A stretch of DNA of 64,000 nt from an uncultured Actinomycetota bacterium (GCA_963839995.1 CAWIXH010000011.1:6152-70151); one strand, 5' to 3'. Positions 1,641 to 44,491 are shown, counted from the first letter of the stretch. Program-made: numbers and translations. Notes: a model not told the origin generated them from the letters alone.

Positions 1641-1702
1641 GCCGAACCACGCTCAGACACCCGAACCGAGGTTCTTGAGCCCCACACGCGCTCGCGGCTG
1701 TC

Positions 1703-3875: not shown

Positions 3876-4224
3876 CACAGACCCCCGGGGCGGGCCTGAC
3901 CCACGATTCGGCTGCCGCACCCGCTGGCCTTCGAACGATCCGTCGGCCCCGCCCCGGGCCTCCACCACCCCGGCTGCGCGTGACCTCATAAGAGCCTGCC
4001 CTCCACACCGGAGCGGCCCGTCCCTGTCCTGTCCGCAACCCAGCCGACCCGACCCGAACGACCCCCAGCAGCGCCCGCAGAAAGCGAGACGACGAAATGT
4101 CACCAGAGCGCTTGACAAACCATAGGAGCATCGATCGTGTCGGAGTTCGCCGTGAAGCGTTGTGGATCACCGTTCCCGGGCCGTGGTCGGCAGAGTGCGG
4201 TGCCGCTACGGGCGGTTCTCGTGG

Positions 4225-5472: not shown

Positions 5473-5720
5473 GCGAACCCACCCCACTCGGTCGCAGTGA
5501 AGCCCGATACGGGAACCCGGTCAATCCCCACCCGACCGGCCGCGATCGCAAACACAGCCGCCGCGCAGAATGACAGGCCGCCGAGCAGCCTGGCGTCCAA
5601 CGAGTAGCCGATCAGCCCCTGGCTCGCCGCCGATACGTGCCGGAATCGGCAATCGCGCGGGGACCTCATCGGAGGTTCCGCTCGGCGCCGCGGGCGCCCG
5701 ACCGGCGAAGCGCCGTCGAT

Positions 5721-10372: not shown

Positions 10373-10675
10373 GCTTACATAATGCAAGCATCGAGCAGGG
10401 ACGGCAAGTCGGCAACCCGCGTCCGACGCAAGCAACGAACACAGCTCAATACTGAGCGAGCACCGGTGTCCCATAACAACGGCGTCGCCAGCCGCCGAGT
10501 TCGCTGCAAGACGTGTCCCCGATTCGGCGGTACGGCTCGATCGCGTGATCACGGTCGGCGACGAGCTGGGCGTTCGAGCTGACGCTGGTTCTACGGTCGT
10601 CTCATCATTCGTTCTGCTGGGGCGCGGTCGCCTCTGCGGGTTCCGGGCCCTGGCCCGGTGCTGTGGAGGTGCCCG

Positions 10676-11607
10676 ATGACCGATTCAACCGTGCAGAGAT
10701 CAACGACCGCGGTGGCCATTCCGGTGGAGCCGCTGTTCAGCGGTGACGAACGGGCCGCGCTGGTCGGGTTCTTGGCTGGCTACTCCGGCCAGACCCGCGC
10801 CGCGTACACCCTAGATCTGCGCCAGTACACCTCCTGGTGTGCGAGCCACGGGCTGCACCTGTTCGCCGCGAAGCGGGCGGACATTGGGTGCTACGCCCGC
10901 GACCTCGAGGCGCGTGGTCGGGCCCGGGCGACGATCGCGCGGAGGTTGTGCACGGTGTGCGGGTTCTACCGCTACGCCGTCGAGGAAGACCTGTTGGATC
11001 ACTCCCCCGCCGCGCATGTGCGTCGGCCGCGGCTGGACTACGAATCGCACGCCACCGCGCTCGACCGGAACGAGGTCGGCGGCCTGCTGGTTGCCGCCGG
11101 ACTCGGCAAGCCGGTCGAGCACGCCCTGATCTCGCTGCTCATCCTGAACGGGCTGCGGATCGGCGAAGCGCTCGGCGCGAACATCGAAGCACTGGGTAGC
11201 GAGCGCGGACACCGCACCCTGACGGTGCTGCGCAAGGGCGGCAAGATCGTCACCATCCCGCTCGCCCCGCGCACCGCGCGGGCCATCGACCTGACCGTTG
11301 GGGAGCGGGTCGAGGGACCGATCTTCCTGCGCAGCGACGGGCAGCGGATGGACCGGCACGCCGCCTCCCGCATCGTGGCCGCGCCGCGAAGAAGGCTGGC
11401 CTCGGCAACAAGCGGATCTGCCCGCACACGCTGCGGCATGCGTTCATCACCGCCGCCCTGGACGCCGGTGTCCCGCTGCGCGACGTGCAAGAAGCCGCCT
11501 CGCACGCCGATCCGCGCACCACGATGCGTTACGACCGCGCCCGCGCCTCCCTCGACCGGCACGCCATCTATGTCGTCGCCGCCTACCTGGCCGGCGCGGC
11601 CCGCTGA
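10676..11607 (+). pseudogene. XerC/D-like tyrosine integrase with a 1-nt frameshift near 11379
   Basis: GGAGG at 10665-10669 and ATG at 10676. N-terminal SAM-like domain and the catalytic-domain start are in frame 1. The remainder, KKAGLGNKRICPHTLRHAFITAALDAGVPLRDVQEAASHADPRTTMRYDRARASLDRHAIYVVAAYLAGAAR*, is in the next frame, with its stop at 11605-11607. Confidence 0.8.
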
Positions 11608-11722
11608 TCCGTGCCCTGCTGGTCGGCGGCCTGCGACGAGCAGCTTGCGGCCGACCAGGCTGACACGACATCGGCGCGGGTATGAGGTTTACCGCATATG
11701 CTGTTGGTGCTATGTTGGTCTG

Positions 11723-12124
11723 GTGCTGATCGACTGGTCCGCCGAGTTCGACCTTTGGCTGGACCGGCTGGTCGAGCGAGCCGACGGCGGCGATGCGGCC
11801 GCCGGGACGCAGCTGGATCTGGTCTACGCCGAACTGGAGTATCTGCAGGAATTGAAGGAGGCGCCCGGTGAGGACACCGCGACGCTCAAACGCGTCCGGC
11901 AGTCCCGCAACAACCCGGTGTGGCGGGTCGCCCACCCGTTCCGGGCAGGTATCGCGGTCCGCCTCATCGTCTGGTTCCCGCCCGAGCGCCCCGACAACGT
12001 CGTGGTGGTCCTGTTCGCCGGCGACAAGGCGACCATGGGCGACGTGTTCTACGACAGCGTCGGTACCCGCGCCGATGCCGCGATCGCCAGCTATCGGATG
12101 CACAGCGAAGGAGAAACCCCATGA
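11723..12124 (+). CDS. Putative RelE/HigB-like toxin of a type II toxin-antitoxin pair
   Basis: GTG at 11723. VLIDWSAEFDLWLDRL...NPVWRVAHPFRAGIAVRLIVWFPPERPDNVVVVLFAGDKATMGDVFYDSVGTRAD. ATGA overlap with the following XRE gene. The family assignment is from memory only. Confidence 0.5.
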   Translation: MLIDWSAEFDLWLDRLVERADGGDAAAGTQLDLVYAELEYLQELKEAPGEDTATLKRVRQSRNNPVWRVAHPFRAGIAVRLIVWFPPERPDNVVVVLFAGDKATMGDVFYDSVGTRADAAIASYRMHSEGETP

Positions 12125-12540: not shown

Positions 12541-13270
12541 ATGAGCGAACTGTTCGTGGCGCTCAACCCGGACACACCGATTCGCGCGGTTGCCGTACTT
12601 GCTGCGGCTCCCGCTCGGTGACGGGATGATCTTCCGCACGTCCGGGACCTGGTAGCCCACCAAAGCTCTCTACTGCTATCCGGTCGGCGCCGAGGAGTGG
12701 CCGGCCGAGCCGAAGATCGTCGAACGCGTTCCGGTGCGCTCCTGCGCCCGACGCGGCGCCGCGATCGACCTGGTGCTCGACCGTGGTCGGAAGAATCGCT
12801 GACAGATCGTGTTCACCACCGCTCGCGGCCGCGACGCGGTGTTCTGGCAATCGCCACGCACCCGAAAGCAAGCCCGCCCGAACGTCACCACGCCGGCGGC
12901 TCGCGCCGCCGGCATCGCCAAGCTCGACATCCTCGTCGACACCCGCGAGCAGTACGGCTACCGCTTCCCCACCCAGCAGGTCGCCACCGTTAAGCGGGCG
13001 CTGCCCTGCGGCGACTACGGCATCAGCATCGACGGCCGACTCGTCGCGGCGGTGGAGCGCAAGTCACTGCCCGACCTCGTCTCCAGCCTGCTCAACGGCA
13101 AACTGCGCGCAGCGGTCGTGGTCGAGGACCACTACTCGCAGATCTCCAAACTCAACTGGGTGCGGCCCGTGCTCGTCGCCGACGGCATCGCCGAACTGCA
13201 GGTGCGCTGGCCCAACGTGCCGATCGCCTTCGCCGAGACCCGACAACTGGCCGAGGAATGGACCTACCGT
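12541..13270 (+). pseudogene. ERCC4-nuclease-domain gene, 5' part: frameshift near 12575, in-frame TAG at 12653 and TGA at 12800, then cut by the RIT element
   Basis: MSELFVALNPDT (ATG 12541), then LPYLLRLPLGDGMIFRTSGTW*PTKALYCYPVGAEEWPAEPKIVERVPVRSCARRGAAIDLVLDRGRKNR*QIVFTTARGRD...LVDTREQYGYRF...GDYGI...AVERKSLPDLVSSL...AEEWTYR. Confidence 0.75.
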
Positions 13271-13376
13271 TATTACTCCGATTCCCGGGTTATTCCGATG
13301 TCGGCTCCTTCGCGCGTGTGATGGGCCTGCTGGGCTGGGATGACGGACTCGCGGAGCTGGCGCCTGTCGGAATAAA
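13271..13376. repeat. RIT left terminal inverted repeat (106 bp)
   Basis: tattactccgattcccgggttattccgatgtcgg...cctgtcggaataa matches the reverse complement of 20651-20756 with 3 mismatches by manual alignment. It holds TTATTCCGA and its inverse about 70 bp apart. Confidence 0.85.
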
Positions 13377-13472
13377 CCAGAGCGTCGGTTGCTCGCCTGG
13401 GACTTCTTCCCTGATTTTCTGCGCCCATGGTGATGGTGCCGCCATGTCCGTCCGGACCGGCGGTTCACCGGA

Positions 13473-14716
13473 ATGGAAGGACGTGCCATGGGGTCGATGG
13501 TGTCCGGGCTGGCTGAAGCCGTGCTCGGCGTGGCTGAGGGTGTGGGCTTGTCGAGCGACACGCTCGCTCGCTACGGCAAGTGCTGCGAGGCGGTCGTGGA
13601 GTTCTGCGACCAGCGGGACGTCGACGTGTTGTCAGTCAGGGTGGTCGAGGAGTTCGTCGCGTGCCAGGACGAGCGTGCGCGCCGCGGTGAGACCGGACGG
13701 AACAGGCGGAACGCTCTGGTGAGGTCAGCCCGCATGATGCTCGAGTTCCAGAGAACCGGTGCGGTCGCCTGGCGGGTGATGAGTCCGGGCCCTGATCTGA
13801 GCGAGAGCTCCTGTGAAGTCCTGGAACAGTTCGCCGCTGCAGCTGGCCTGGCTGTGGCCCGGGGATCGGTGAGACTGCTGGCCGGCGAGATTCGCCTCTT
13901 CCTGGTCTATCTCGACCGGATCGGCCGGGATGATGTCGGCGCGGTCACGGTCGAGGACGTCCGGGGGTTCATGGTCGAGATGGCGCCAAGGCGGCCTGCC
14001 GGCATGGGCAACGTGGTGTGGTCGCTGAAGAGGTTCTTCGCCTTCCTCAACGTCGCCGGGCTCAGCGACGTCCGCGTCGACGGCCTGCTCGCGTTTGCCG
14101 CGCCGCGGCGGGTACGTGCGCTGCCGTGCTTCACCCGTGAGGAGACCGACCGTCTGCTCGAGGGATCGAGACCGAGACCCCCTGCGGGAAGAGGGACTAC
14201 GCGATGGTATCGCTGGCGGTCTCGACCGGGCTGCGCTGCTGCGACATCGTGGCACTGCGCCTGGAGGAAATCGACTGGCACCGCGACGAGATCCGGCTGG
14301 TGCAGGCCAAGACATCCAAGCCGCTGGTGCTGCCGCTGCCAGCGCCGGCAGGCAACGCTGTCGCTGAGTGGATCTTGCACGGTCGACCTGACTGTGACGC
14401 CACGGAGGTGTTCGTCCGGCTCCAGGCGCCGTTCGTGAAGCTGGGGAACTCGACAGGCTCGACGCTCATGCGCCGCCGCCTGACCCGGGCCGGCATCGAT
14501 CACGTGGCCGGCGACGGCAAGTCGTTCCATGCCCTGCGGCGCACCGCCGGGACAAGACTCATCGAGTCCGGGGCGGGGCTGCCGCTGGCCGCGCAGATCC
14601 TGGGCCATGCCCGCATCGATTCCTCCCGCCGCTACTTCGCTTTGGCCAGCGAGCAGCTGCGCCAGTGCTGCCTGCCGCTGCAGGAGTTCGCCTGCATCAA
14701 GGAGGGGCTGCGGTGA
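13473..14716 (+). pseudogene. ritA: RitA-type tyrosine recombinase with a 1-nt frameshift near 14163 (GGG run)
   Basis: Frame 1 reads as far as ...TREETDRLLEG. It then continues in the next frame as IETETPCGKRDYAMVSLAVSTGLRCCDIVALRLEEIDW...FHALRRTAGTRLIESGAGLPLAAQILGHARIDSSRRYF. Confidence 0.75.
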
Positions 14717-15504
14717 GCACGTTCACCAGCAATTTCGCGCCCCACATCCAGGCGATGCTCGAATGGCGAACCTCGCTGGGACACAGCCTGCGTGACATGA
14801 GCAACGCCATGGCGAGTTTCGACAGGTTCTGCTCATCGCATCGCCCCAGCGAGACGGTCTTGACCCAGGAACTGGCGACCGCGTGGTGCCAGGACACGGC
14901 GACGGGCACGTGGGGCGCCTACCGCAGCCGCGCGGTCCGTGAGTTAGGCAAGTACCTCCAGCTGACAGGCGTGGATGGGTTCGTCGTGCCCTCCACATGG
15001 ATCTCCAGGCCGACCCGCGGCCTGCCGCACATGTTCACCGATATCGAGCTGGCCGCCTTCTTCAAGGCCGCCGACTGCGTCGACGCCGAGTACCGCAGCC
15101 CATTCCGCGAGTACACGATCCCGGTCATCTTCCGGCTGATTCTCAGCGCGGGACTACGCCCGCCCGAGGCCCGCCGCCTGCACCGCCACGACGTTGATGC
15201 CGACAACGCGATGGAGTGCTCCCCGGCCTGGCTCATCGCCAGCTACCACCGCTGCTGCGAGCGTGCCGGCGGGATCGCGCCTGGCTCAACCCCGTACACG
15301 CTGCGGCACAACTACGCCACTCGCACCCTGATGCGGTGGGTCGAAGAAGGCAAGGACATCGGCGCCTGGCTGCCATACCTGTCTGCCTACATGGGACACC
15401 AGAAGTACTGCTCGACGGCGTGGTACGTCCATCTGCTGCCCGAACGCCTCGCGGCAACCGGCCTGACCAGCGCGGCCGGGATCATCCCGGCGGTGGCCTC
15501 GTGA
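14713..15504 (+). CDS. ritB: RitB-type tyrosine recombinase; the ORF is intact but seems to lack about 35 residues (the beta-hairpin/Lys region)
   Basis: GTG at 14713 overlaps the ritA TGA. The catalytic Arg (SAGLRPPEA), HxxR (TLRHNYATR) and GH..Y (YMGHQKYCSTAWYVH) are present, but only about 40 residues separate DVD from RH. Confidence 0.65.
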   Translation: MSTFTSNFAPHIQAMLEWRTSLGHSLRDMSNAMASFDRFCSSHRPSETVLTQELATAWCQDTATGTWGAYRSRAVRELGKYLQLTGVDGFVVPSTWISRPTRGLPHMFTDIELAAFFKAADCVDAEYRSPFREYTIPVIFRLILSAGLRPPEARRLHRHDVDADNAMECSPAWLIASYHRCCERAGGIAPGSTPYTLRHNYATRTLMRWVEEGKDIGAWLPYLSAYMGHQKYCSTAWYVHLLPERLAATGLTSAAGIIPAVAS

Positions 15505-16409
15505 ACACCCGCCGGGAGGCTGCGGACAGCTTCTACCGGCACCTTCGCCAGTGGTTCACCGCGTTCCTTCCCCGCCAGCGCGGCGCAGCCGACAACACGA
15601 TCACCTCGTGCCGCCAGACCTGGAACATGCTGTTGGGCTACGTCGCCGGACATCACCACGTCGCAATCGAGAAGGTCACGTTCACGATGGTCGACCGGGT
15701 CACCGTCACCGGGTTCCTCGACCACATGCGGAGCACGAGGTCGTGGACGGCCACGACCTGCAACCAGCGCCTGGCATGCATCCGGTCGTTCTTCGCCTAC
15801 GCGGCGTCCGCCGAGCCGTCCCTCGCGATCTATCTCGCCGATCTCGCCGCCATCCCGAGGCTCAAAGGCCCAGCCGCGGCACCCGTGAAATACATGAGCA
15901 CCGACGCGGTCGCGGCGCTGCTCGCCGTCCCGGACCCGGGCACCCGGATCGGGCTGCGCGATCAGTTCTTCATGATCCTCATGTATGACCTGGCTGCCCG
16001 CGACGCCGAGATGCTCGCCATGAACCTCGCCGACATCGACACCAGGCGGCTCACCGTGGACCTGCTCGGGAAAGGCTCCAAACCAAGGCGTCTCCCCATC
16101 ACCAGCGAGACCGCCCAGCACTTCGGCCGCTACACCGCCGTGTTCCACCCCAGCCCGGAACCGGCGACCCCGATGTTCTACACCGTCCGTAGTCATCGTC
16201 TGACCCGGATGTCCGACGACAACGTCGCCAGGTTCATGCGCCAGCACGCCGCCACCGCCAAGACGAGATGTCCCGACATCCCTACCCGGGTCCACCCGCA
16301 CATGCTCAGGCACTCGCGGGCGATGCATCTCTACCGAGCCGGCATGCCCCTGGCCCTGCTCACCGAGTGGCTCGGGCACGCCGACCCCGAGACCACGCTC
16401 ATCTACGCG
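15501..16409 (+). pseudogene. ritC: RitC-type tyrosine recombinase, 5' 303 codons, interrupted after ...LGHADPETTLIYA
   Basis: GTG at 15501 overlaps the ritB TGA. As it stands the ORF runs into the inserted element and ends at 16472 with the tail NPRELHQMHDPNSALRQLVA. Confidence 0.85.
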
Positions 16410-16422
16410 AACCCTCGGGAAT

Positions 16423-16544
16423 TGCATCAGATGCATGATCCGAATTCGGCACTCCGGCAGTTGGTCGCCTGAAACACGTCTCGCGCCTGCTGGATATTCG
16501 GGCTTCGGGAGTGTCGGCTTGATCGTTTGATCCCGTCTGATGCA
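16423..16544. repeat. Left-end inverted TGCATCAGA / TCTGATGCA sites (candidate recombinase-binding sites)
   Basis: ttgcatcagatgcatgatc lies at 16422-16440 and gatcccgtctgatgcaggat at 16529-16548. Both blocks are conserved in the diverged sister copy, whereas the spacer between them is not. Confidence 0.5.
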
Positions 16545-17690
16545 GGATATGCCCACCAACTGGAGCTGGGGGTCGCGTTGCGGCGGGTGGGTTTGGCGGG
16601 CGCGGCGAGCGCCGAGCTGGTCGACGGGGTTCGGCAGCTGCGGCCGGAGGATGCGATGGTCGAGGCGATGTTGCGGGGCTGGCAGGCGCAGCAGGTAGCG
16701 CGTGGCCTGCGCGCGGAGACCGTCGGTTACCGGCAGCGGCTGGTGCGCCGGTTCATGGCCTTCACCAACGAGTACCCGTGGCAGTGGCGGCCGGGGCACG
16801 TGGACGAGTGGACGTTGATGTTGACCGCGGAGCGGCATCTGGCGGCGTCGACGATCCGTAACTACCAGACCGAGCTGCGGTTGTTCAGCGAGTACGTGTG
16901 CGACGGACGGTATGGCTGGGCGGCCGCGTGCGAGACGGAGTTCGGGCCGGGGGTGCATCCGGTACCGATCTGCCACGAGTGGAACACGATCACGCACCTG
17001 AACGAGTACGAGGGCGACCCGGAGGCCCGGCCGTTCACCCGGGCCGAACTGCAACGCTTTCTGGACTACGCCGATGAGCAGGTCGACCGGGCGGCGCAGG
17101 CCAGACGTAAGGGCGCGTTGGCGGCCTACCGGGACGCCACGCTGTTCAAGGTGGTCTACGGGTGGGGACTGCGGCGCACCGAGACCTCGAAGCTGGATCT
17201 GGCCGACTGGGGCCGCAACCCGGCTGCGCCGGAGTTCGGCCGGTTCGGGATGCTGCACGTCCGCTACGGCAAGGCGGTGCGCGGCCAGCCACCCCGGCGG
17301 CGCAACGTGCCCTCGGTGTTCGGCTGGGCAGTGGAGGCGGTGAGCGATTACGTCGAGAACATCAGGCCCCGTTTCGGGGCGGTAGATCATCCGGCGTTGT
17401 GGGTCACCGAACGCGGTGGCCGGATCAAACCCGCAGAGATCAACGCCCGGTTCGTTGCCTACCGTGATGCGCTCGGGCTGCCCCGCGAGCTGACGCCCCA
17501 TTCGCTCAGGCACTCGTTCGTGACCCACCTTACGGAGAACGGGGCCGACCGCCGGTTCATCCAGGAGGCCGTCGGACATCGCTGTGACACGTCCACGGCG
17601 ATCTATACCCACGTGTCCGGGGACTTCATGAACACCGCGCTGCGCAAGGCACTCACCCCGGCCTTCGAGCCAGATGCCCAGGTTCGGTAA
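16527..17690 (+). CDS. Tyrosine integrase of the element (387 codons as listed; true start uncertain)
   Basis: RRTETSKLDL (Arg), HSLRHSFVTHL (HxxR) and VGHRCDTSTAIYTH (His..Tyr). Confidence 0.85.
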   Translation: MIPSDAGYAHQLELGVALRRVGLAGAASAELVDGVRQLRPEDAMVEAMLRGWQAQQVARGLRAETVGYRQRLVRRFMAFTNEYPWQWRPGHVDEWTLMLTAERHLAASTIRNYQTELRLFSEYVCDGRYGWAAACETEFGPGVHPVPICHEWNTITHLNEYEGDPEARPFTRAELQRFLDYADEQVDRAAQARRKGALAAYRDATLFKVVYGWGLRRTETSKLDLADWGRNPAAPEFGRFGMLHVRYGKAVRGQPPRRRNVPSVFGWAVEAVSDYVENIRPRFGAVDHPALWVTERGGRIKPAEINARFVAYRDALGLPRELTPHSLRHSFVTHLTENGADRRFIQEAVGHRCDTSTAIYTHVSGDFMNTALRKALTPAFEPDAQVR

Positions 17691-17699
17691 GGAGATTCG

Positions 17700-18026
17700 A
17701 TGACACGCAAACTGGATTACCGGTGGAACCTGCGGCAGGTAATGGCCACCCAGGGCATGTTCGCCACCACCGACCTGATCGACCCGCTCGCCGCTCGCGG
17801 GATCCGGCTGTCCTCCAGCCAGGTCTACCGGCTGGTCGTCGAGCGGCCGGAGCGGCTGAGCTTGAAGATCCTCATGGCGTTGCTGGACATCATGGACTGC
17901 TCGATGGACGAGCTGATCGAACCAGTCGCCGCTGGCTCGCCGGCCCGCAAGCGCCGTGCGGCCGGCGGCTCGGAGACCGGGATCGGGACGCTGCGCCCGA
18001 AGCCGGCGCGCATCACCCGCAGCTGA
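17700..18026 (+). CDS. Small Cro/C1-type HTH protein of the element
   Basis: MTRKLDYRWNLRQVMATQGMFATTDLIDPLAARGIRLSSSQVYRLVVERPERLSLKILMALLDIMDCSMDELIE. Confidence 0.75.
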   Translation: MTRKLDYRWNLRQVMATQGMFATTDLIDPLAARGIRLSSSQVYRLVVERPERLSLKILMALLDIMDCSMDELIEPVAAGSPARKRRAAGGSETGIGTLRPKPARITRS

Positions 18027-18029
18027 TCG

Positions 18030-20477
18030 ATGCCGACCAGCGTGATGGTGCCCGAGGTACTCGCCGACCCGATCGGTGTGGTCGTCGACATGGTCGCCGG
18101 CGCCGAGCCCGCGCTGGATCGCGCCGTCATCGAGCAGGCGGCCACCGAGGTCGCCGGCGGTCGGGCGAAGCGCCGCCGGCTCGCTCAGGCGCTGCTGGAG
18201 CGGCCCGCCGTGCTCACCGACGGCCGCTCGCCCGCCCCACGCGTTGTCGGTGACCTGCTGGTGAACCTGCGGACCGCGGGCGCGATGAGCATCGCGGCGC
18301 CGGTCTGCGCGGGCTGCGGCAAGCAGCTTCGTACGCTGCAGCGACGCGGAACCGACTGGTACTGCGCGGTTTGCAGCCCCCGGGCGACCGGGTGCGCTGC
18401 CTGTGGCCAGAACCGGATCGTGGTCACCCTCGACCGCGAGGGCCGGCCCCGCTGTTCGCGCTGCCCCGATGCCGATGGCCGGGATCCGTTGCTCACCCTG
18501 ATCACGGTGATCACGACCCTGGAACCGTCGCTGCCAGTCGAGGACATCACCACCGCTATCGGGCGCGTGTTCTCCAGGCCCAGCTATCTGCAGCGCCTGG
18601 CCTGGGCCATCGAGGACCGACCTGAGCTGCTCACCGGCCAAAGCGCGCAGGCACCGATGCACGGCGTGCTGCGGCTCATCGACGAACTTCGCGAGGCCGG
18701 CGCGCAAGCCATCATCCGACCGGCCTGCCCGCAGTGTCAGCGGATCGTACGACTGCACCGGCGCATCAACGGTCAATGGCACTGCCGCAACTGCCTGGCC
18801 AAGTCCCGCGCCCAGCCCTGCTCCCGCTGCGGTGTCATCCGCGAGGCGGCCGCCCGGGACGAGCATGGCCGGCCGCTGTGTCCCAACTGCCTGGTCGCCG
18901 AGCCCGCCAACCAGGAAACCTGTGTCGGATGCGGGCGACGTCGCCGGGTCCACACCCGCACTCCGGGCGGGCCGTCGTGTCAGGCATGCCGACCGATCAG
19001 CGTGGTGGACTGCTCGATCTGCGGCCGTCACGCGCCGGGCGTGATCTCCACCGCGACCGGGCAACCGTGGTGCTACGCCTGCAGCAAACGCCGGGCCCGC
19101 TGCGTCGGCTGCGGGGCCATACGGTTGGTGCGTGGCGGAAAGCTCGCCGCCCCGCTCTGCGCCACCTGCACCCGCCCTGACCCGTCGTTCTGGCACACCT
19201 GCCCCGGCTGCGGCGAACACACCGTGCACCGGCGACGCACCTGCGGCCGCTGCGCGCTTCGACAGCGGCTCGAGCAGCTGCTCGGCTGCGACGAGGACGG
19301 CGGTATCCACCCACGCCTGCGAGCGTTGCACGAACACCTCGCCGGCCACGAACGTCCAGACACCGTGCTGACCTGGCTCAACAAGGACAACGCGTCGGCG
19401 ATCTTGGGTGAACTCGCCACCGGGCAACGTCCACTGACCCACGCCGGGCTCGACGAACTGCCCGATTCCAAGCCGCTGCAGCACCTGCGCAGCGTCCTGG
19501 TTGCCGTCGGTGCACTGCCTGCCCGCGACGAGCAGATGACCCGACTCGAGAACTGGATCACGGCCACCATCACCGTGCGCGAGGACGCCGATGAACGACA
19601 ACTGCTGCACCGCTACGCCACCTGGCACGTGCTGCGCAGACTCCGGCGGCGGGTGCGCGAGGCCAGCACCACCAACGGGCAGGCCATCGCAGCTCGCCGC
19701 AAGATCACTGCCGCGATCGCCTTGCTCGACTGGCTGGAAACCCAGGACCGAACCCTGGCCACGGCCGGGCAAGGCGACCTCGATACCTGGCTGGCCAGCG
19801 GCACACGCTCGGCTACCGACGCGGGGAACTTCGTCCGCTGGGCTCGCAAGCAGAAACTCACCCGACTGGAGTTCGCCGCCACCCGATGGCACGGGCCGAC
19901 CGGCGTGATCGACACCGAGACCCGCTGGTCCCAGGCCCGCCGGCTCCTGCACGACGACACCCTCCAGCCCGAGGGCCGCGTCGCCGGGTTGCTCGTGCTC
20001 CTCTACGCGCAAACCGCGGCAGCGATCAGCCGGCTCACCCTCGACCACGTCCAGACCAGCAACAGCGAGACCCGCCTCCGACTCGGACGCGAACCCGTCA
20101 CCCTGCCCGAACCAGTCGACGCCCTGGTCCGGGAACTGGTCAACACTCGTCGCGGTCACGCTGTCCTCGGCGACCAAGGAACCTCACGGTGGCTGTTCCC
20201 CGGCGGCCGCCCCGGACACCCCATCAGCGCCGCCCGCCTCGCCGAACGACTCCGCGAACTCGGCATCCAGGCCGGGCCATCCCGCTCGGCCGCACTGTTC
20301 CAACTCGCCACCGACCTGCCCGCCGCCATGCTCGCCCGCATGCTCGGCATCCACATAGCCGTCGCCGCCACCTGGCAACGCGCCGCCGCCGGTGACTGGA
20401 CCAACTACGCCGCCGAGATCAGCCGACGACCAGCGTCCGCCCCGGCCGTCGAGCTGGTCGCCGATGATCAACAGTGA
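18030..20477 (+). CDS. 815-aa protein: eight CxxC..CxxC zinc-ribbon-like modules plus a C-terminal integrase-like domain
   Basis: CAGCGK..CAVC, CAACGQ..CSRC, CPQCQR..CRNC, CSRCGV..CPNC, CVGCGR..CQAC, CSICGR..CYAC, CVGCGA..CATC, CPGCGE..CGRC. The C-terminus reads ...AISRLTLDHV...PSRSAALFQLATDLPAAMLARMLGIHIAVAATW...WTNYAAE. Confidence 0.8.
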   Translation: MPTSVMVPEVLADPIGVVVDMVAGAEPALDRAVIEQAATEVAGGRAKRRRLAQALLERPAVLTDGRSPAPRVVGDLLVNLRTAGAMSIAAPVCAGCGKQLRTLQRRGTDWYCAVCSPRATGCAACGQNRIVVTLDREGRPRCSRCPDADGRDPLLTLITVITTLEPSLPVEDITTAIGRVFSRPSYLQRLAWAIEDRPELLTGQSAQAPMHGVLRLIDELREAGAQAIIRPACPQCQRIVRLHRRINGQWHCRNCLAKSRAQPCSRCGVIREAAARDEHGRPLCPNCLVAEPANQETCVGCGRRRRVHTRTPGGPSCQACRPISVVDCSICGRHAPGVISTATGQPWCYACSKRRARCVGCGAIRLVRGGKLAAPLCATCTRPDPSFWHTCPGCGEHTVHRRRTCGRCALRQRLEQLLGCDEDGGIHPRLRALHEHLAGHERPDTVLTWLNKDNASAILGELATGQRPLTHAGLDELPDSKPLQHLRSVLVAVGALPARDEQMTRLENWITATITVREDADERQLLHRYATWHVLRRLRRRVREASTTNGQAIAARRKITAAIALLDWLETQDRTLATAGQGDLDTWLASGTRSATDAGNFVRWARKQKLTRLEFAATRWHGPTGVIDTETRWSQARRLLHDDTLQPEGRVAGLLVLLYAQTAAAISRLTLDHVQTSNSETRLRLGREPVTLPEPVDALVRELVNTRRGHAVLGDQGTSRWLFPGGRPGHPISAARLAERLRELGIQAGPSRSAALFQLATDLPAAMLARMLGIHIAVAATWQRAAAGDWTNYAAEISRRPASAPAVELVADDQQ

Positions 20478-20515
20478 AGGTATTCAGACAGTTGGAAAAC
20501 CTGACTCCGCCAGAG

Positions 20516-20641
20516 AACGCCGACACCGAGATGAAACGCCATGCCCTCGAAAAGGCAAACAGCACCGGCCCGCAACCCCCTCCGGCCCCGTTGTGGCACA
20601 ACCGCGAGGACATCATCCAGCGCTTGTGCGGACTCAAGTAG
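20516..20641 (+). pseudogene. ritC: RitC 3' remainder (41 codons plus stop)
   Basis: NADTEMKRHALEKANSTGPQPPPAPLWHNREDIIQRLCGLK* follows directly on ...TTLIYA in the same codon phase. Confidence 0.8.
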
Positions 20642-20650
20642 TGACACCGG

Positions 20651-20756
20651 CTTATTCCGACAGGCGCCAGCCACGCGAGCCCGTCATCCCAGCCCAGCAG
20701 GCCCATCACACGCGCGAAGGAGCCGACATCGGAATAACCCGGGAATCGGAGTAATA
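20651..20756. repeat. RIT right terminal inverted repeat (106 bp)
   Basis: It is the reverse complement of 13271-13376, with 3 mismatches. Confidence 0.85.
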
Positions 20757-20786
20757 CCAGTTATTCCGAGATCGGAATAACTGGTA
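20755..20786. repeat. 14-bp-stem palindrome at the outer right edge of the RIT element
   Basis: taccagttattccg agat cggaataactggta. It holds two more TTATTCCGA-type 9-mers and has no counterpart at the left end. Confidence 0.85.
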
Positions 20787-22798: not shown

Positions 22799-22805
22799 GT
22801 CAGTC

Positions 22806-22876
22806 GGGTAGCCCGGGGGAATCTCACCCTCGGGCTCCCACAGATCCGTACGTGACAGTCTCCCGTCATACGGCTC
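22806..22876 (-). ncRNA. Group II intron domains V and VI
   Basis: DV is GAGCCGUAUGACGGGAGACUGUCACGUACGGAUC (22876-22843). DVI is GGGAGCCCGAGGGUGAGAUUCCCCCGGGCUACCC (22839-22806), with the bulged branch-point A at 22809. Confidence 0.8.
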
Positions 22877-22888
22877 TTGTTGTCCTGG

Positions 22889-24145
22889 TCATCTGGCGGC
22901 CGGGTTCACCCAGGCCCAGTGCGCGAAGTACTGCGGCCGCTCTCGGGCCGCGCGACTCATCGCCTGCATGGACTTCTTCCAAGCGCGGAGCCGCTTGTAC
23001 TTGTTCATGGTCCACCGCAGCAGGTAGGTGTTGATGCGGCGGAGCAAGGGATACAGCGCTGACCGGTAGAAGGCGCCGTAATACGCCATCCATCCCCGCA
23101 CGATCGGGTTGATCACCCGGGCGAGATCCTCACCGGTGCTGCCGGTGCGGCGGTGCAGCCGCCAGGATCGCACCCGCGCGCTGATCTTCTTCAGGGCATC
23201 GTTGCTGATGGCCGGGAGGAACGACACGAACTTCGCACCGTCCTTCCGCCGGGCCGAGCGTGGCCGGAAGGTGAACCCCAAGAACGTGAACGACGTGTGC
23301 TCGAACTCGCCACGCCGGTTGCTGTCCTTGCAGTAGACGATCCGGGTCTTGGCCGGGTGCAGCCGCAGCCCAACCTCGTCCATCCGCTCATGCAGCGCGG
23401 CCAAGACCTTCTCGGCCTGCCACCGAGTAGCGCAGTGCAGGACCGCGTCGTCGGCGTACCGCTCGAACTCGACCATCGGAAACTCCCGAGACAGCCAGGT
23501 ATCGAACGCGTAGTGCATGAACAGATTCGCCAGCACGGGCGAAACCGCTGAACCCTGATGGGTTCCCCGGTCGCGCGCCTGCAACGTCCCGTCGGGCAGC
23601 TGTAACGGCGCAGCCAGCCACCGCGTCACGTACAGCATCACCCAGCGGGCATCGGTGTGCGCCTGCACGGCCTTGATCACCAGGTCCCACCGGACGCTGT
23701 CGAAGAACTTCTGGATGTCCAAATCGATCACCCAGTTGCTCGTCCAGCAGCGTTTCCGGCAGACCCCGACCGCGTCCAGCGCGGAACGCCCAGGCCGGTA
23801 GCCGTAGGAGTCAGGATGGAACACCGGTTCCACCCTGGCCTCCAGATGCGCGGCTACCACGGTCTGCGCGACCCGATCCGCGACGGTAGGCACCCCTAAG
23901 ATTCGGGTGCCCGCGCCGTGCGGCTTGGGTACCTCCACCGCTCGCACCGGGGGCGGGAAGTACGTCCCCGACGACATCCGATTCCAGATCTTGTACAGGT
24001 TGTTCTTCAGATCCGTCTCGAACTCCGCCAGCGACTGCCCGTCCACTCCCGGTGCGCCCTGATTCCCTTTCACCTTGAGCCAGGCGCCCCACACCTCAAC
24101 CTTCGAGATGCGAAACGGCTTGCCGGATGACTTCAACTCGTCCAT
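22889..24145 (-). CDS. Group II intron reverse transcriptase/maturase (no endonuclease domain seen)
   Basis: GGGAGGAG RBS, then ATG at 24145. RT motifs: GAPGVDG, RILGVPTVADRVAQ, YGYRPGRSA, QGSAVSPVLANLFMHYAFD, YADDAV. Maturase motif: INPIVRGWMAYYG. Confidence 0.9.
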   Translation of the reverse strand: MDELKSSGKPFRISKVEVWGAWLKVKGNQGAPGVDGQSLAEFETDLKNNLYKIWNRMSSGTYFPPPVRAVEVPKPHGAGTRILGVPTVADRVAQTVVAAHLEARVEPVFHPDSYGYRPGRSALDAVGVCRKRCWTSNWVIDLDIQKFFDSVRWDLVIKAVQAHTDARWVMLYVTRWLAAPLQLPDGTLQARDRGTHQGSAVSPVLANLFMHYAFDTWLSREFPMVEFERYADDAVLHCATRWQAEKVLAALHERMDEVGLRLHPAKTRIVYCKDSNRRGEFEHTSFTFLGFTFRPRSARRKDGAKFVSFLPAISNDALKKISARVRSWRLHRRTGSTGEDLARVINPIVRGWMAYYGAFYRSALYPLLRRINTYLLRWTMNKYKRLRAWKKSMQAMSRAARERPQYFAHWAWVNPAAR

Positions 24146-25280
24146 CGGGCTCCTCCCAGAACCTCTGGTTGACCAAACGAACACAGCCACGGACAACCCG
24201 GCGCCTTCGCTCCACCCCCGTTACAGGGGCTTCACCACTACTACGCGCCGGTCCGCCAGCATGTCCCGCGCCGGTACTCACGTCCCGGCCAGCCAAGATC
24301 AATCCCTGTCTGGCCGGGCGCTCCCTGTCGCCATGCCGCTGACGCACGGCAGTGTCGGGACACGCCTTCTCACGTTCCACACGAGAGCAGCAGACCGGGC
24401 TCACGCCGCCTCCACACCGGACACCGCCAGGCCAGTAAACGGGCACCCGCCTGGCTCATCCCGGGATACACACCAAACCCCGGTTTCGATGTCGTCTGAA
24501 GAGTTTCGATGCTTCAACAACGGTCGTCTTCCCGGCCCCCACCTGACACCTCTCGGGCGCCTTCTCCTCATCGCTCACCACGACGGTCTTCAGCCAACGC
24601 AGCATGAGGCGGTTTGAAGCCTCCCCCCGCAGGGCGGCTCCGAAGGGCCATACCTTCATCTCTCGTGCAGCACCGCATCAAGAAACTCGGCTACCTACAC
24701 GGCAAGCCCCTCTCTGCGTTCGTGACACACGGCATGGCTCATTCCCTCCAACCTGGCGTGTTGTGGCGTGTGGTGCGTGGAGATCTGCCATCGGGCCCGA
24801 ACAGGGTCGCCCTTCACGGCCACAGCGCGGGCGCCACGAGCGCTCAGAGCCGCTGCCCGGCCTGCAGAATCCGACGACGCGAGGTTCCCCACGACCGCAG
24901 ACGGTTGACTCGACCATCAGAAACCCCCAGTTTCCGCGCGGCCGCCAGATCTCACCCGTCATGGAGACCCGCGCACACACACCTGATACCGGTCGAGGCT
25001 GTCGATTCGTTTCCGCACCCGGGTCGGCCAGGCAGGGTTGCTGCCCATTCGTCAACCGCCTGGTCCACGCGCCTGCCGACTCGTTGCGGCCTTCGAAGCG
25101 AGCGCCAGTCGCCGGCCGTGGCGTCGTCGCGGCCAGGTTTGCCGAGCCGGTCACCTGGCCGGCGCGATCGAGCAGGTCGCCCGGTTTGGTTGCCGAGCTC
25201 CTATTGCAGACCGCGGAGGTGACCATGATCCTGGGCCGGTCACGTTCAGACGTGGCAGCGTTTCGGCCGCGGCACCGTTG

Positions 25281-27584: not shown

Positions 27585-27752
27585 TCAGGCTTGCTGGGGC
27601 AGCGAGCGACGGCCGAGCCGCCGGCGCAGTTCGGGGTTCTCGCCGTGGGCGGCCTCCAGCGCCTGGTTGAGGCTGCGGATCTCGTCGCGGTGGCGGCGTT
27701 TGAGCTCGGCGAGTTGGGCGGTGAGGGTGCGCGTCGGGGTTACCGCGCATCA
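27585..27752 (-). pseudogene. Possible remnant of the small coiled-coil third gene of a Tn554-like trio
   Basis: TLTAQLAELKRRHRDEIRSLNQALEAAHGENPELRRRLGRRS follows the TnpB-like stop. The ATG overlapping that stop is in another frame. This call is weak. Confidence 0.25.
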
Positions 27753-28236
27753 GTCGTGCTCCTGCTTGTCGGCGAGGGCGTCGGTGCGAGCCTCGACCCC
27801 GGCGCCGCGGATCGCCCGCGCGCTGCCGTCGGCGAGGCGGGTGTGTTCGAGGGTGAGGATGACGCGGCCGAGTGCATCGTGTTCCTGGCGTCGTCCGGCC
27901 AGCCACACGTTGTCCTCGCTCATCTCCCGCCCGGTGCGGGCAAGGAACACAGCGTTACGTTCGGTGATCAGGTTTGCGGTGCGGTCGAGCTGGGTGCGCA
28001 GCTCGGGAAGGAAGCTGGCGTCGGTGGCGAACTTGTCACAGGTCAGGCACGAGTTGCCCTTCTGACAGACCTGGCGGGGTGGCAGCAGACACCAGCCGTT
28101 GGGCAGGATCCGGTCAGTGCGCCGGTCCAGTTCGAGCATGTCGTAGAGGTCTCGTGGGTCGATGTCCAGGTCGCGGGCGTCAGCGGTGATCTTGCGATAG
28201 CGCAGGAACTCCGCCTCGGCGGTGGACTGCAGCGTC
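27750..28236 (-). pseudogene. Tn554 TnpB-like tyrosine recombinase, 3' part (post-tyrosine extension with a Cys motif)
   Basis: TLQSTAEAEFLRYRKITADARDL...ILPNGWCLLPPRQVCQKGNSCLTCDKFATDASFLPELRTQLDRTANLI. It starts directly at the right end of element copy 2. Confidence 0.55.
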
Positions 28237-28274
28237 CTCTGGCGGAGTCAGGTTTTCCAACTGTCTGAATACCT

Positions 28275-30722
28275 TCACTGTTGATCATCGGCGACCAGCT
28301 CGACGGCCGGGGCGGACGCTGGTCGTCGGCTGATCTCGGCGGCGTAGTTGGTCCAGTCACCGGCGGCGGCGCGTTGCCAGGTGGCGGCGACGGCTATGTG
28401 GATGCCGAGCATGCGGGCGAGCATGGCGGCGGGCAGGTCGGTGGCGAGTTGGAACAGTGCGGCCGAGCGGGATGGCCCGGCCTGGATGCCGAGTTCGCGG
28501 AGTCGTTCGGCGAGGCGGGCGGCGCTGATGGGGTGTCCGGGGCGGCCGCCGGGGAACAGCCACCGTGAGGTTCCTTGGTCGCCGAGGACAGCGTGACCGC
28601 GACGAGTGTTGACCAGTTCCCGGACCAGGGCGTCGACTGGTTCGGGCAGGGTGACGGGTTCGCGTCCGAGTCGGAGGCGGGTCTCGCTGTTGCTGGTCTG
28701 GACGTGGTCGAGGGTGAGCCGGCTGATCGCTGCCGCGGTTTGCGCGTAGAGGAGCACGAGCAACCCGGCGACGCGGCCCTCGGGCTGGAGGGTGTCGTCG
28801 TGCAGGAGCCGGCGGGCCTGGGACCAGCGGGTCTCGGTGTCGATCACGCCGGTCGGCCCGTGCCATCGGGTGGCGGCGAACTCCAGTCGGGTGAGTTTCT
28901 GCTTGCGAGCCCAGCGGACGAAGTTCCCCGCGTCGGTAGCCGAGCGTGTGCCGCTGGCCAGCCAGGTATCGAGGTCGCCTTGCCCGGCCGTGGCCAGGGT
29001 TCGGTCCTGGGTTTCCAGCCAGTCGAGCAAGGCGATCGCGGCAGTGATCTTGCGGCGAGCTGCGATGGCCTGCCCGTTGGTGGTGCTGGCCTCGCGCACC
29101 CGCCGCCGGAGTCTGCGCAGCACGTGCCAGGTGGCGTAGCGGTGCAGCAGTTGTCGTTCATCGGCGTCCTCGCGCACGGTGATGGTGGCCGTGATCCAGT
29201 TCTCGAGTCGGGTCATCTGCTCGTCGCGGGCAGGCAGTGCACCGACGGCAACCAGGACGCTGCGCAGGTGCTGCAGCGGCTTGGAATCGGGCAGTTCGTC
29301 GAGCCCGGCGTGGGTCAGTGGACGTTGCCCGGTGGCGAGTTCACCCAAGATCGCCGACGCGTTGTCCTTGTTGAGCCAGGTCAGCACGGTGTCTGGACGT
29401 TCGTGGCCGGCGAGGTGTTCGTGCAACGCTCGCAGGCGTGGGTGGATACCGCCGTCCTCGTCGCAGCCGAGCAGCTGCTCGAGCCGCTGTCGAAGCGCGC
29501 AGCGGCCGCAGGTGCGTCGCCGGTGCACGGTGTGTTCGCCGCAGCCGGGGCAGGTGTGCCAGAACGACGGGTCAGGGCGGGTGCAGGTGGCGCAGAGCGG
29601 GGCGGCGAGCTTTCCGCCACGCACCAACCGTATGGCCCCGCAGCCGACGCAGCGGGCCCGGCGTTTGCTGCAGGCGTAGCACCACGGTTGCCCGGTCGCG
29701 GTGGAGATCACGCCCGGCGCGTGACGGCCGCAGATCGAGCAGTCCACCACGCTGATCGGTCGGCATGCCTGACACGACGGCCCGCCCGGAGTGCGGGTGT
29801 GGACCCGGCGACGTCGCCCGCATCCGACACAGGTTTCCTGGTTGGCGGGCTCGGCGACCAGGCAGTTGGGACACAGCGGCCGGCCATGCTCGTCCCGGGC
29901 GGCCGCCTCGCGGATGACACCGCAGCGGGAGCAGGGCTGGGCGCGGGACTTGGCCAGGCAGTTGCGGCAGTGCCATTGACCGTTGATGCGCCGGTGCAGT
30001 CGTACGATCCGCTGACACTGCGGGCAGGCCGGTCGGATGATGGCTTGCGCGCCGGCCTCGCGAAGTTCGTCGATGAGCCGCAGCACGCCGTGCATCGGTG
30101 CCTGCGCGCTTTGGCCGGTGAGCAGCTCAGGTCGGTCCTCGATGGCCCAGGCCAGGCGCTGCAGATAGCTGGGCCTGGAGAACACGCGCCCGATAGCGGT
30201 GGTGATGTCCTCGACTGGCAGCGACGGTTCCAGGGTCGTGATCACCGTGATCAGGGTGAGCAACGGATCCCGGCCATCGGCATCGGGGCAGCGCGAACAG
30301 CGGGGCCGGCCCTCGCGGTCGAGGGTGACCACGATCCGGTTCTGGCCACAGGCAGCGCACCCGGTCGCCCGGGGGCTGCAAACCGCGCAGTACCAGTCGG
30401 TTCCGCGTCGCTGCAGCGTACGAAGCTGCTTGCCGCAGCCCGCGCAGACCGGCGCCGCGATGCTCATCGCGCCCGCGGTCCGCAGGTTCACCAGCAGGTC
30501 ACCGACAACGCGTGGGGCGGGCGAGCGGCCGTCGGTGAGCACGGCGGGCCGCTCCAGCAGCGCCTGAGCGAGCCGGCGGCGCTTCGCCCGACCGCCGGCG
30601 ACCTCGGTGGCCGCCTGCTCGATGACGGCGCGATCCAGCGCGGGCTCGGCGCCGGCGACCATGTCGACGACCACACCGATCGGGTCGGCGAGTACCTCGG
30701 GCACCATCACGCTGGTCGGCAT
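28275..30722 (-). CDS. 815-aa zinc-ribbon-rich integrase-like protein (copy 2)
   Basis: The translation is identical to 18030-20477. Confidence 0.8.
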   Translation of the reverse strand: MPTSVMVPEVLADPIGVVVDMVAGAEPALDRAVIEQAATEVAGGRAKRRRLAQALLERPAVLTDGRSPAPRVVGDLLVNLRTAGAMSIAAPVCAGCGKQLRTLQRRGTDWYCAVCSPRATGCAACGQNRIVVTLDREGRPRCSRCPDADGRDPLLTLITVITTLEPSLPVEDITTAIGRVFSRPSYLQRLAWAIEDRPELLTGQSAQAPMHGVLRLIDELREAGAQAIIRPACPQCQRIVRLHRRINGQWHCRNCLAKSRAQPCSRCGVIREAAARDEHGRPLCPNCLVAEPANQETCVGCGRRRRVHTRTPGGPSCQACRPISVVDCSICGRHAPGVISTATGQPWCYACSKRRARCVGCGAIRLVRGGKLAAPLCATCTRPDPSFWHTCPGCGEHTVHRRRTCGRCALRQRLEQLLGCDEDGGIHPRLRALHEHLAGHERPDTVLTWLNKDNASAILGELATGQRPLTHAGLDELPDSKPLQHLRSVLVAVGALPARDEQMTRLENWITATITVREDADERQLLHRYATWHVLRRLRRRVREASTTNGQAIAARRKITAAIALLDWLETQDRTLATAGQGDLDTWLASGTRSATDAGNFVRWARKQKLTRLEFAATRWHGPTGVIDTETRWSQARRLLHDDTLQPEGRVAGLLVLLYAQTAAAISRLTLDHVQTSNSETRLRLGREPVTLPEPVDALVRELVNTRRGHAVLGDQGTSRWLFPGGRPGHPISAARLAERLRELGIQAGPSRSAALFQLATDLPAAMLARMLGIHIAVAATWQRAAAGDWTNYAAEISRRPASAPAVELVADDQQ

Positions 30723-30725
30723 CGA

Positions 30726-31052
30726 TCAGCTGCGGGTGATGCGCGCCGGCTTCGGGCGCAGCGTCCCGATCCCGGTCTCCGAGCCGCCGGCCGCACGGCG
30801 CTTGCGGGCCGGCGAGCCAGCGGCGACTGGTTCGATCAGCTCGTCCATCGAGCAGTCCATGATGTCCAGCAACGCCATGAGGATCTTCAAGCTCAGCCGC
30901 TCCGGCCGCTCGACGACCAGCCGGTAGACCTGGCTGGAGGACAGCCGGATCCCGCGAGCGGCGAGCGGGTCGATCAGGTCGGTGGTGGCGAACATGCCCT
31001 GGGTGGCCATTACCTGCCGCAGGTTCCACCGGTAATCCAGTTTGCGTGTCAT
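30726..31052 (-). CDS. Small HTH protein (copy 2)
   Basis: The translation is identical to 17700-18026. Confidence 0.75.
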   Translation of the reverse strand: MTRKLDYRWNLRQVMATQGMFATTDLIDPLAARGIRLSSSQVYRLVVERPERLSLKILMALLDIMDCSMDELIEPVAAGSPARKRRAAGGSETGIGTLRPKPARITRS

Positions 31053-31061
31053 CGAATCTCC

Positions 31062-32225: not shown

Positions 32226-32342
32226 ACGATCAAGCCGACACTCCCGAAGCCCGAATATCCAGCAGGCGCGAGACGTGTTTCAGGCGACCAACTGCCGGAG
32301 TGCCGAATTCGGATCATGCATCTGATGCAATTCCCGAGGGTT

Positions 32343-44407: not shown

Positions 44408-44491
44408 GAGCGTGTCAGATGGTCTGTGTACGGGAGGTGCCTGAGAGCCTGAAGTGACTGATGTGGCTTCAGGTGGAAGGAGACACCGAGC

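Follow-up and report, generated by a model that had tools for sequence, protein, structure and literature searches.

Prokaryotic transposons with tyrosine recombinases (YRs) were counted in 2023 as five groups, ICE/IMEs, SEs, GInts, RITs and Tn554 (PMC10214605). Tn554-related gene pairs with a recombinase of 611-828 aa have been described in actinobacteria (Van Houdt et al., 2012; PMC3414803). A 64,000-nt stretch of DNA from an uncultured Actinomycetota bacterium (GCA_963839995.1 CAWIXH010000011.1:6152-70151, termed the window here, at its full length) carries two copies of a three-gene element that lies within YR genes. The genes encode a tyrosine recombinase (IntA), a helix-turn-helix (HTH) protein and a large protein termed BIG. 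This is a discrete, recently active Actinomycetota element of ~4.1 kb, inserted in YR genes at TAY NNN/ (a slash marks the junction here and below); the account of it as a whole, with the mechanism proposed below, is considered probable. We read it as representing a new group of mobile elements with tyrosine recombinases, parasitic on other mobile elements.

Several features are shared with Tn554 (tnpA, tnpB, tnpC). Both elements depend on tyrosine recombinases and have neither obvious terminal repeats nor target duplications; both insert at a specific site in a specific orientation and have a small operon that encodes one ordinary and one very large recombinase-fold protein. In Tn554, however, TnpA and TnpB both have the RHRY residues, whereas here IntA alone has them and BIG seems to lack Arg I and Tyr, according to a low-confidence alignment. 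The third Tn554 protein is TnpC, while here a Cro/C1-type HTH gene stands between the two large genes. Tn554 carries a donor footprint of ~6 bp and uses a single att site; no footprint is seen here, and the motif that is used is common to a gene superfamily.

Strand-biased circularizing elements (SEs) and GInts, with the core gene sets intA-tfp-intB-srap or ginABCD (PMC10214605), also have a multi-protein recombinase operon at the left end of the element and few target sites. Their Tfp/GinC protein has a recombinase-like domain without RHRY, and BIG is likened to it by description. SEs differ in having four core genes with two active recombinases, as opposed to three genes and one active recombinase, and in having imperfect terminal repeats of 13-19 bp and a 6-bp fingerprint/footprint, neither of which is seen here. 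They occur in Gamma- and Betaproteobacteria and follow a different targeting logic. RITs are likewise small recombinase-only elements and occur in the same genomes, but they have three adjacent, overlapping genes for active recombinases and long terminal inverted repeats; here, a RIT-like unit is the host of one element copy. ICEs, IMEs and prophages carry transfer, mobilisation or phage functions and have an att core in common with their target, whereas the 4.1 kb of the present element hold three genes alone. The element thus lies outside the definition of each of the five groups. The sequence-only reading, made earlier from the DNA without database searches, had set it apart from DDE elements, RIT trios and Tn554, and this feature-by-feature comparison agrees. 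No report of insertion at the Tyr codon of recombinase genes came to light in a full-text literature search, with subscription-only papers outside its scope, and the target rule is provisionally taken to be previously undescribed.

Element copies and their insertion point in recombinase genes

Base-by-base comparison shows two exactly identical copies of 4,106 bp, one on each strand, and the identity spans AACCCTCGGG (16410) through CCGCCAGAG (20515). The coordinates proposed in the sequence-only reading, 16410-20515, are therefore exact. A repeat search gives a 4,120-nt inverted pair (16401-20520 with 28232-32351); the few extra matching bases are present because both flanks are recombinase genes. 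An identity over 4,106 bases cannot have arisen by chance, and the ends are also conserved across dozens of unrelated genomes. The repeat search of the window found no terminal inverted repeat joining the element ends, as had been noticed earlier. Features of the two copies and of the genes they interrupt are as follows.

16410-20515, + strand: element copy 1, 4,106 bp, identical to copy 2, both ends conserved across loci
16410-16439, + strand: conserved left end, AACCCTCGGGAATTGCATCAG..., the first 30 nt, over which identity is kept across junctions
16527-17690, + strand: IntA, 387-aa tyrosine recombinase of Xer/IntI type (PF00589, E=3e-20), with SAM-like N-terminal domains
17700-18026, + strand: HTH protein, 108 aa, Cro/C1-type (PF13443, E=6e-12)
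18030-20477, + strand: BIG, 815 aa, with invariant Cys pairs and a recombinase fold according to Foldseek
20476-20515, + strand: conserved right end, ...CAGACAGTTGGAAAACCTGACTCCGCCAGAG, the last ~40 nt, kept across loci
15501-16409, + strand: copy 1 target gene (IntX), 5' part, a ritC-like recombinase up to ...TLIYA (PF00589, E=1.7e-24)
20516-20640, + strand: copy 1 target gene, 3' part (NADTEMKRHALEKA...), in which the open reading frame (ORF) continues in frame
13266-20761, + strand: RIT-like host element, three adjacent recombinase genes, 3,390 bp minus the insert
28237-32342, - strand: element copy 2, with BIG at 28275-30722, HTH at 30726-31052 and IntA at 31062-32225
32343-33536, - strand: remnant of element B, left end and IntB, cut after ...TAIYT by copy 2
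33537-33899, - strand: IntY, fragment of a third recombinase gene (PF00589, E=6e-13), interrupted by element B
27750-28236, - strand: right flank of copy 2 (TLQSTAEAEF...CLTCDKF), the part of a long recombinase that follows its tyrosine, identified by homology to the tails at loci L027, L080 and L058

The sequence-only reading had missed the target. A sharp one exists, the codon boundary between Tyr+1 and Tyr+2 of tyrosine-recombinase genes, and all three left junctions in the window are located directly 3' of the codon that follows the catalytic-tyrosine codon. Copy 1, in the third gene of the RIT-like trio, begins directly 3' of TAC GCG. The reading is ...EWLGHADPETTLIYA/NPRELHQ..., and the gene is resumed after the right end as /NADTEMKRHALEKA... 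The left end is in frame with the target gene, such that NPRELHQ... replaces the C-terminal tail, with a stop at 16470-16472. When the flanks are joined, a 343-aa ORF results that aligns with 100% coverage and up to 91% identity to intact homologues of 345-346 aa, which read ...TLIYA(N/H)ADTEMKR... uninterrupted over the junction point (here the slash separates alternative residues). Because the rejoined target is collinear with the intact homologues, nothing was duplicated or lost at copy 1, and the earlier statement that there is no target duplication holds. Another interrupted copy of this target family is present in database protein P0172 (...TLVYA/VSRKLHQTGE...).

Copy 2 is a nested insertion. 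Its left junction follows ...GHRCDTSTAIYT/ of IntB, which is 83% identical to IntA, and the left end of element B in turn adjoins ...SMVYA of IntY (...GHLTPTMSMVYA/). The right flank of copy 2 is not the remainder of IntB; it is homologous to the tails that follow ...HYA/RLHDTTV (L027, L080) and /QTLATTAEREF (L058). It starts 2 nt short of the canonical junction, which in this family reads ..LDH..YA/RLHDTTV... As the two flanks are mismatched, a deletion between two copies is indicated, and the simplest account would be a deletion between two directly oriented copies that removed the remainder of element B. A 99.9%-identical element is found in a fourth recombinase gene (...TAVYL/HANLALKEQ...) at L203 (another metagenome contig, ENA ERZ25039533 contig_11216, 137-5486). 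The window junctions together with this copy show that the element lineage has recently used at least four different recombinase genes. In the HTH gene of the L203 copy, at about element position 1307-1312, lies a further insertion, of 1,239 bp and with a 6-bp duplication.

The same arrangement is widespread. A profile search with BIG detected 515 encoding stretches among 185,579 species-representative genomes, and 80 loci were fetched, from Mycobacterium, Nocardia, Rhodococcus, Micromonospora, Salinispora, Actinoplanes, Streptomyces, Kitasatospora, Kribbella, Amycolatopsis, Catenulispora, Acidimicrobiia and others. The order Int-HTH-BIG is syntenic in all 80 wherever the contig reaches far enough, and the distance from left to right end is mostly 4,083-4,115 bp. 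At the left end the first 22-30 nt are conserved and at the right end the last ~40 nt, with conservation ceasing precisely at the element limits of the window. Many contigs are ~4.1 kb long and start or stop at element boundaries, as expected of a repeat. The earlier proposal of a discrete three-gene unit with fixed ends is borne out by this synteny and by the conserved ends: the genes keep the same order and the same ends, were not found separately, and do not form part of a larger island with other boundaries. Annotation has indeed been piecemeal, as that reading stated; public records give "hypothetical protein" or "site-specific integrase".

The target rule holds across these genomes. Among distinct left junctions, which represent many actinobacterial genera, TAY is present at -6 to -4 in 48 of 48. 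The left flank, read in frame, finishes with the recombinase box II motif (..GH......[ST]T..Y-x) in all except one, and the element is co-oriented and in frame with the interrupted YR gene, also in 47 of the 48. Mean pairwise identity over the 48 junctions is 0.87 in the first 30 nt of the element versus 0.48 in the 45-nt flanks. The target proteins range from ~300 to >770 aa and belong to many families, among them RIT-like trios, short and long Tn554-like recombinases, integrase-like genes and the Int genes of relatives; nested insertion into the latter is common. Right flanks in frame 0 are recombinase tails (HADLATKERAM, HLAPAHVKAEF, HVSDDAIENAY, KIADRTVADQYF, AVYPEEVINGHRAF, HVSGDFMN). At L044 the flanks GYK/AVYPEEVINGHRAF are collinear with the intact paralogue GYKAVYPDEAIQSHLAF. 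Interruption leaves the recombinase with all its catalytic residues and exchanges its C-terminal tail for ~20 element-encoded residues (NPRELHQ...).

Right ends of the family are of two types, ...CGCCAGAG and ...GCCGTTA (also ...ACCATTA). They mark two lineages (loci L056-L080 versus L001-L048) to which the left end and the target rule are common. The terminal right-end bases, AGAG or, in the other lineage, GTTA, are constant whatever the left flank. No direct repeat or att core common to element and target was found at the junctions. Conserved secondary structure was not found in the left end either (RNAalifold, 42 left ends: -1.2 kcal/mol, 4 pairs), and there was no covariation. Group II introns and other self-splicing inserts differ in this respect, as they have structured RNA at their ends; there was no Rfam match inside the element, and the sole match in the window is an unrelated group II intron at 22803-24657. 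A promoter and terminator scan over the element was uninformative.

Some variants of the family were also observed. Beyond the first 30 nt of the left end, two internal sequence types occur. At eight loci (L014, L015, L029, L031, L037, L043, L046, L048) the stretch from BIG to the right end is longer by 0.5-0.95 kb, and some BIG homologues (P0018, P0025, P0055, P0112) are fused to nucleotidyltransferase or GrpB domains (PF01909, PF18765, PF04229); both the extra DNA and the fused domains may be cargo. Gene-less miniature elements of 270-314 bp are present at L034 (48-317), L074 (346-659) and L036 (up to 141). These consist of the left end and a right end of type ...GCC(A/G)TTA, with a foreign recombinase gene as left flank and, as right flank, an Int gene's post-Tyr tail with HTH and BIG behind it. 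A possible origin is as derivatives similar to miniature inverted-repeat transposable elements, combined with deletions of an attL x attL type.

Information in the target

Upstream of the junction, positions -41 to -4 contain the target information, which resides almost wholly in the first and second codon positions of conserved residues; positions -41 to -14 hold most of about 26 bits, and the right side of the junction is nearly uninformative. A weight matrix (PWM) built from the 45 upstream bases of left flanks contains 26.5 bits, in principle enough to distinguish such sites within a genome of 10 Mb. When it was run over the window, the five top positions were all recombinase Tyr sites. 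The occupied sites score 36.2 (IntB), 35.9 (IntX) and 23.6 (IntY). IntA's own Tyr site, unoccupied in both copies, scores 26.5, and further unoccupied recombinase Tyr sites score 22.1 (14638), 21.4 (15429) and 10.2 (11535). Three weak matches of ~12 bits occur elsewhere in the window.

Two insertions are off target. One is at L132, a metagenome contig, in a relaxase/helicase-like ORF (...SHVYT/, ...YVAMSRARNASHVYT/), and the other at L021 (position 365). Both follow TAC NNN, and both sites have negative PWM scores; recognition at the level of DNA rather than of protein is therefore indicated. A DNA-level reading of a degenerate pattern would fit the data. Two other insertions, at L202 (Rhodococcus sp. 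DK17 pDK3, ~2365) and L175 (~3391), lie 4 nt downstream of the usual position in otherwise canonical targets, with the junctions TAT CTG ACG C/AACCC... and TAC GCC AGA G/AAGTC..., respectively. The rejoined gene at L202 is intact in the +4 register. They may be a sign that cleavage occurs at two positions separated by 4 nt. L175 had been selected by the junction pattern itself as a candidate for a right-end AGAG joined to a left end, but it is better explained as a +4 insertion in a canonical target (PWM 41.7).

Actinobacterial Tn554-like genes are among the targets, at L202, L044 and L030. In the DK17 pair at L202, the element interrupts the short gene, which encodes a 381-aa recombinase, beside an intact long gene whose 812-aa product has an intact HxxR...GH...Y. 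The possibility that BIG represents the "abnormally long" TBSSR class (site-specific recombinases, tyrosine-based) of Van Houdt et al. was rejected on this locus, where the true long recombinases are seen as targets of the element. Because of the DK17 locus, that class is regarded as a supplier of targets and not as the same element.

Other transposons are known that attend to conserved sequence or to foreign recombination systems. TnsD-directed targeting of glmS by Tn7 reads a conserved coding sequence and tolerates wobble positions, and the "res hunters" of the Tn5053 family seek the recombination machinery of other mobile elements. The likeness is conceptual alone, in that these are DDE/TniQ systems, whose insertions fall next to a single orthologous gene or in res sites. 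Unlike the present element, they are not known to insert at a fixed codon within the coding sequence of a whole enzyme superfamily.

The three proteins, a proposed mechanism and its rivals

Each copy contains three co-directional, closely spaced ORFs, and ORF calling together with Pfam and NCBIfam profile searches reproduced the gene content first noted, of 387, 108 and 815 aa. The best NCBIfam models for IntA are XerC (E=1e-34) and XerD (E=4.5e-29), both below the model cut-offs. By structure, XerD is the closest relative (E=9e-14), followed by archaeal Xer/XerA and IntI4. The catalytic set is complete in sequence: the Arg in ...GLRRTE..., ...HSLRHS..., GH, and IYT in ...GHRCDTSTAIYT... Identity of IntA across the fetched loci is 70-88%. 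IntA is probably the catalytic recombinase of the element. The HTH gene is located between Int and BIG in every locus, and its product is a putative regulator or directionality factor.

BIG gave nothing significant in Pfam, NCBIfam, PHROGs or PDB sequence searches, and fold comparison alone produced matches. Residues 93-408 have 16 invariant CxxC pairs, which amount to eight four-cysteine zinc modules, and these are preceded by two copies of a helical module. In an AlphaFold model built on 24 homologues (mean pLDDT 76), the C-terminal ~320 aa resemble full two-domain tyrosine recombinases (Foldseek E down to 3e-5, probability 1.0), with Cre, IntI4, lambda Int, Xer, XerH, Brujita Int and Tn1549 Int as the matches. 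The degenerate integrase C-terminal domain that had been suspected in the 815-aa protein thus has the backing of structure prediction. A profile alignment with hhalign places Q783/R784 at the Tyr position, with Arg I lost and R752 (Arg II) and H775 kept, at an HH probability of 11.7%. BIG would accordingly have a recombinase fold without the tyrosine nucleophile; its being catalytically dead is a well-founded inference and not a proof, because the HH probability is low and a nearly invariant tyrosine, Y793, is present. The N-terminal half, modelled alone (pLDDT 79), gives weak Foldseek matches to tandem LIM domains (E~0.01).

It is proposed that strand exchange would be performed by IntA, Xer/IntI-like and with a full catalytic set, while BIG would fill non-cleaving positions of the synapse and/or select the target. 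The target would be a degenerate ~40-bp DNA pattern, formed by codon positions 1 and 2 of "L-GH......[ST]T...Y" and worth about 26 bits. A pattern of this kind would explain how unrelated recombinase genes can serve as targets in their hundreds. A circle, either excised or copied out, would be the substrate; a single strand pair would be exchanged and the junction resolved by replication. Exchange of a single strand pair is probable since there is one active recombinase and no core shared by ends and target. The HTH protein may govern the operon or the direction of the reaction, and the operon may be read through from the target-gene promoter. The element would gain a safe site in every genome and would ride plasmids and other mobile DNA.

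Known precedents for such an exchange are XerC-only integration of the CTX phage and the attC x attI reaction of integrons, in which a single strand exchange is resolved by replication. The element may be analogous to both, with IntA among the Xer/IntI-like simple recombinases, one active partner and no shared core. It differs from integrons and CTX in that no folded single-stranded site was detected at the element ends. A more specific proposal, which we regard as possible and would not call probable, is that the element constitutes a sixth group of prokaryotic YR transposons, a hyperparasite on the YR active-site motif, in which a zinc-array pseudo-recombinase reads codon-spaced DNA and steers one Xer-like recombinase to a bond non-homologous to the ends, with exchange of one strand pair followed by replication.

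Several points weigh against the proposed mechanism. The +4 insertions at L202 and L175 are not predicted by the simple model. The alignment of the BIG catalytic pocket has an HH probability of just 11.7%, and Y793, ten residues downstream, could be a nucleophile of BIG. The zinc array of BIG, a candidate reader of the target, is weakly LIM-like, and LIM domains usually bind proteins. Within the same loci, recombinase sites that are occupied showed no convincing extra nucleotide determinant over those that are not. The joined right-end/left-end junction, CGCCAGAG-N(0-12)-AACYCTCRGGAATTGCA, had 0 matches in 241 million metagenome records, and neither an excised circle, as would arise by the circle-mediated mechanism suggested in the sequence-only reading, nor a tandem junction was found there; assemblies rarely capture rare circles. 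A looser junction pattern matched at least 120 stretches, and among the matches listed there was no joined junction; nearly all were due to chance and two were ordinary left junctions.

Other explanations have to be set beside the proposed one. The element might move as Tn554 and SEs do, by a strand-biased copy-out circle that takes along ~6 bp of the donor left flank and lays them beside the right end at the new site. Traits in common would be the lack of clear terminal repeats and of target duplication, the site and orientation specificity, and the presence of more than one recombinase-fold protein, given that SEs and GInts too encode a recombinase-like protein without RHRY (PMC10214605). 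Since the right-end terminal bases are constant over differing left flanks, there is, however, no footprint of the Tn554/SE type, and rejoined targets are intact. The full catalytic set is found in one protein as opposed to two in Tn554, the small protein is of the Cro/C1 HTH type with no TnpC/Srap-like gene, and the actinobacterial Tn554-like pairs are targets of the element, not its relatives. We regard this route as unlikely. Homing, where a nuclease of the element would cleave at the Tyr codon of recombinase genes and homology-directed repair would copy the element in, is less likely still. It would suit a target that is the best-conserved active-site motif of a gene family, an in-frame and co-oriented insertion, and a precise loss that restores the intact allele; many target families (RIT, Tn554-like) are multi-copy and could supply homology. 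Yet the junctions are base-exact while the flanks of different insertions are just ~48% identical, which excludes homology-directed copying between such genes. Profile searches detected no nuclease domain in IntA, the HTH protein or BIG, the element encodes an apparently active recombinase, and no structured RNA was found in it.

Two further explanations concern the reason for the association with recombinase genes. Removal of the tail might lock or reprogramme the recombinase of the host element, with precise excision as the means of restoring it, so that the insertion would act as a switch or a weapon; targeting would in that case be a matter of regulation or competition and not just of a safe harbour. 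This is compatible with the proposed mechanism. The catalytic residues are always spared, the tail alone is replaced by a conserved element-encoded peptide, and if the element were lost the gene would again be exactly intact. Co-orientation would also put the intA-HTH-BIG operon under the target-gene promoter, and the Int genes of relatives are often hit. The first 24-30 nt of the left end are nonetheless conserved at all three codon positions, a better fit to a DNA site, and such a role is considered improbable. Passive association, that is, insertion at any short TAY NNN with survivors only in dispensable recombinase genes, is given hardly any credence. The insertions at L132 and L021, outside recombinase genes, do have just TAC NNN in common with the consensus. 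A genome, however, contains TAYNNN many thousands of times, for the most part in dispensable DNA, and still 47 of 48 junctions are at one position of one motif, all 47 in sense orientation and in frame, with most of the 26 bits held by positions -41 to -14.

Abundance, significance and surroundings

Homologues of BIG are abundant. At E<=1e-3 the profile matches 7,220 cluster representatives among 1.84 billion proteins, and at E<=1e-30 it matches 1,744. A homologue is present on 264 plasmid records, mostly of Streptomyces, Rhodococcus and Arthrobacter; there was no match in 50,697 phage records. A gene triplet annotated piecemeal in hundreds of actinobacterial genomes and on these 264 plasmids can now be assigned ends, a size and a target. 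The rule is unusual in that one fixed codon boundary is used within a motif of very diverse paralogous genes with flanks that are ~48% identical. It raises the question of how recombination proceeds at a site without identity to the element's own ends, and how a degenerate ~40-bp pattern is recognized. Because recombinases of RITs, Tn554-like elements, integrases and relatives are truncated, an effect on the mobility of other mobile DNA is likely in Streptomyces, Mycobacterium, Rhodococcus, Frankia and related genera. For annotation, a recombinase ORF that finishes ...Y-x-NPRELHQ should be taken as an interrupted gene, not as a variant. For the design of integration tools, there may be interest in a recombinase system in which heterologous crossover sequences are tolerated and a modular pattern is read.

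The RIT-like host of copy 1 has inverted repeats of 113 nt (13266-13378 and 20649-20761) that are 95% complementary, and the Tyr sites of its recombinases are at 14638, 15429 and 16409. Gene 1 of the trio is seemingly frameshifted (13473-14438 and 14204-14716), gene 2 spans ~14665-15504, and gene 3, the copy 1 target, starts at 15501 and overlaps the stop of the preceding gene.

The region is dense with mobile DNA. The group II intron at 22803-24657 (-), which is unrelated to the element, matches Rfam RF00029 and RF01999 and contains a reverse transcriptase/maturase ORF at 22889-24220. Two transposase genes of the IS256/Mutator family, 89% identical and inverted (44462-45919, +; 49694-51130, -), surround seemingly split ResIII helicase-like ORFs (47813-49942 and 50853-52217). 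An IS110-family transposase is located at 2748-3875 (+) and an ERCC4-domain ORF at 12803-13321 (+). A 488-aa recombinase-like ORF at 10658-12124 (+) has an unoccupied Tyr site with a PWM score of 10.2.

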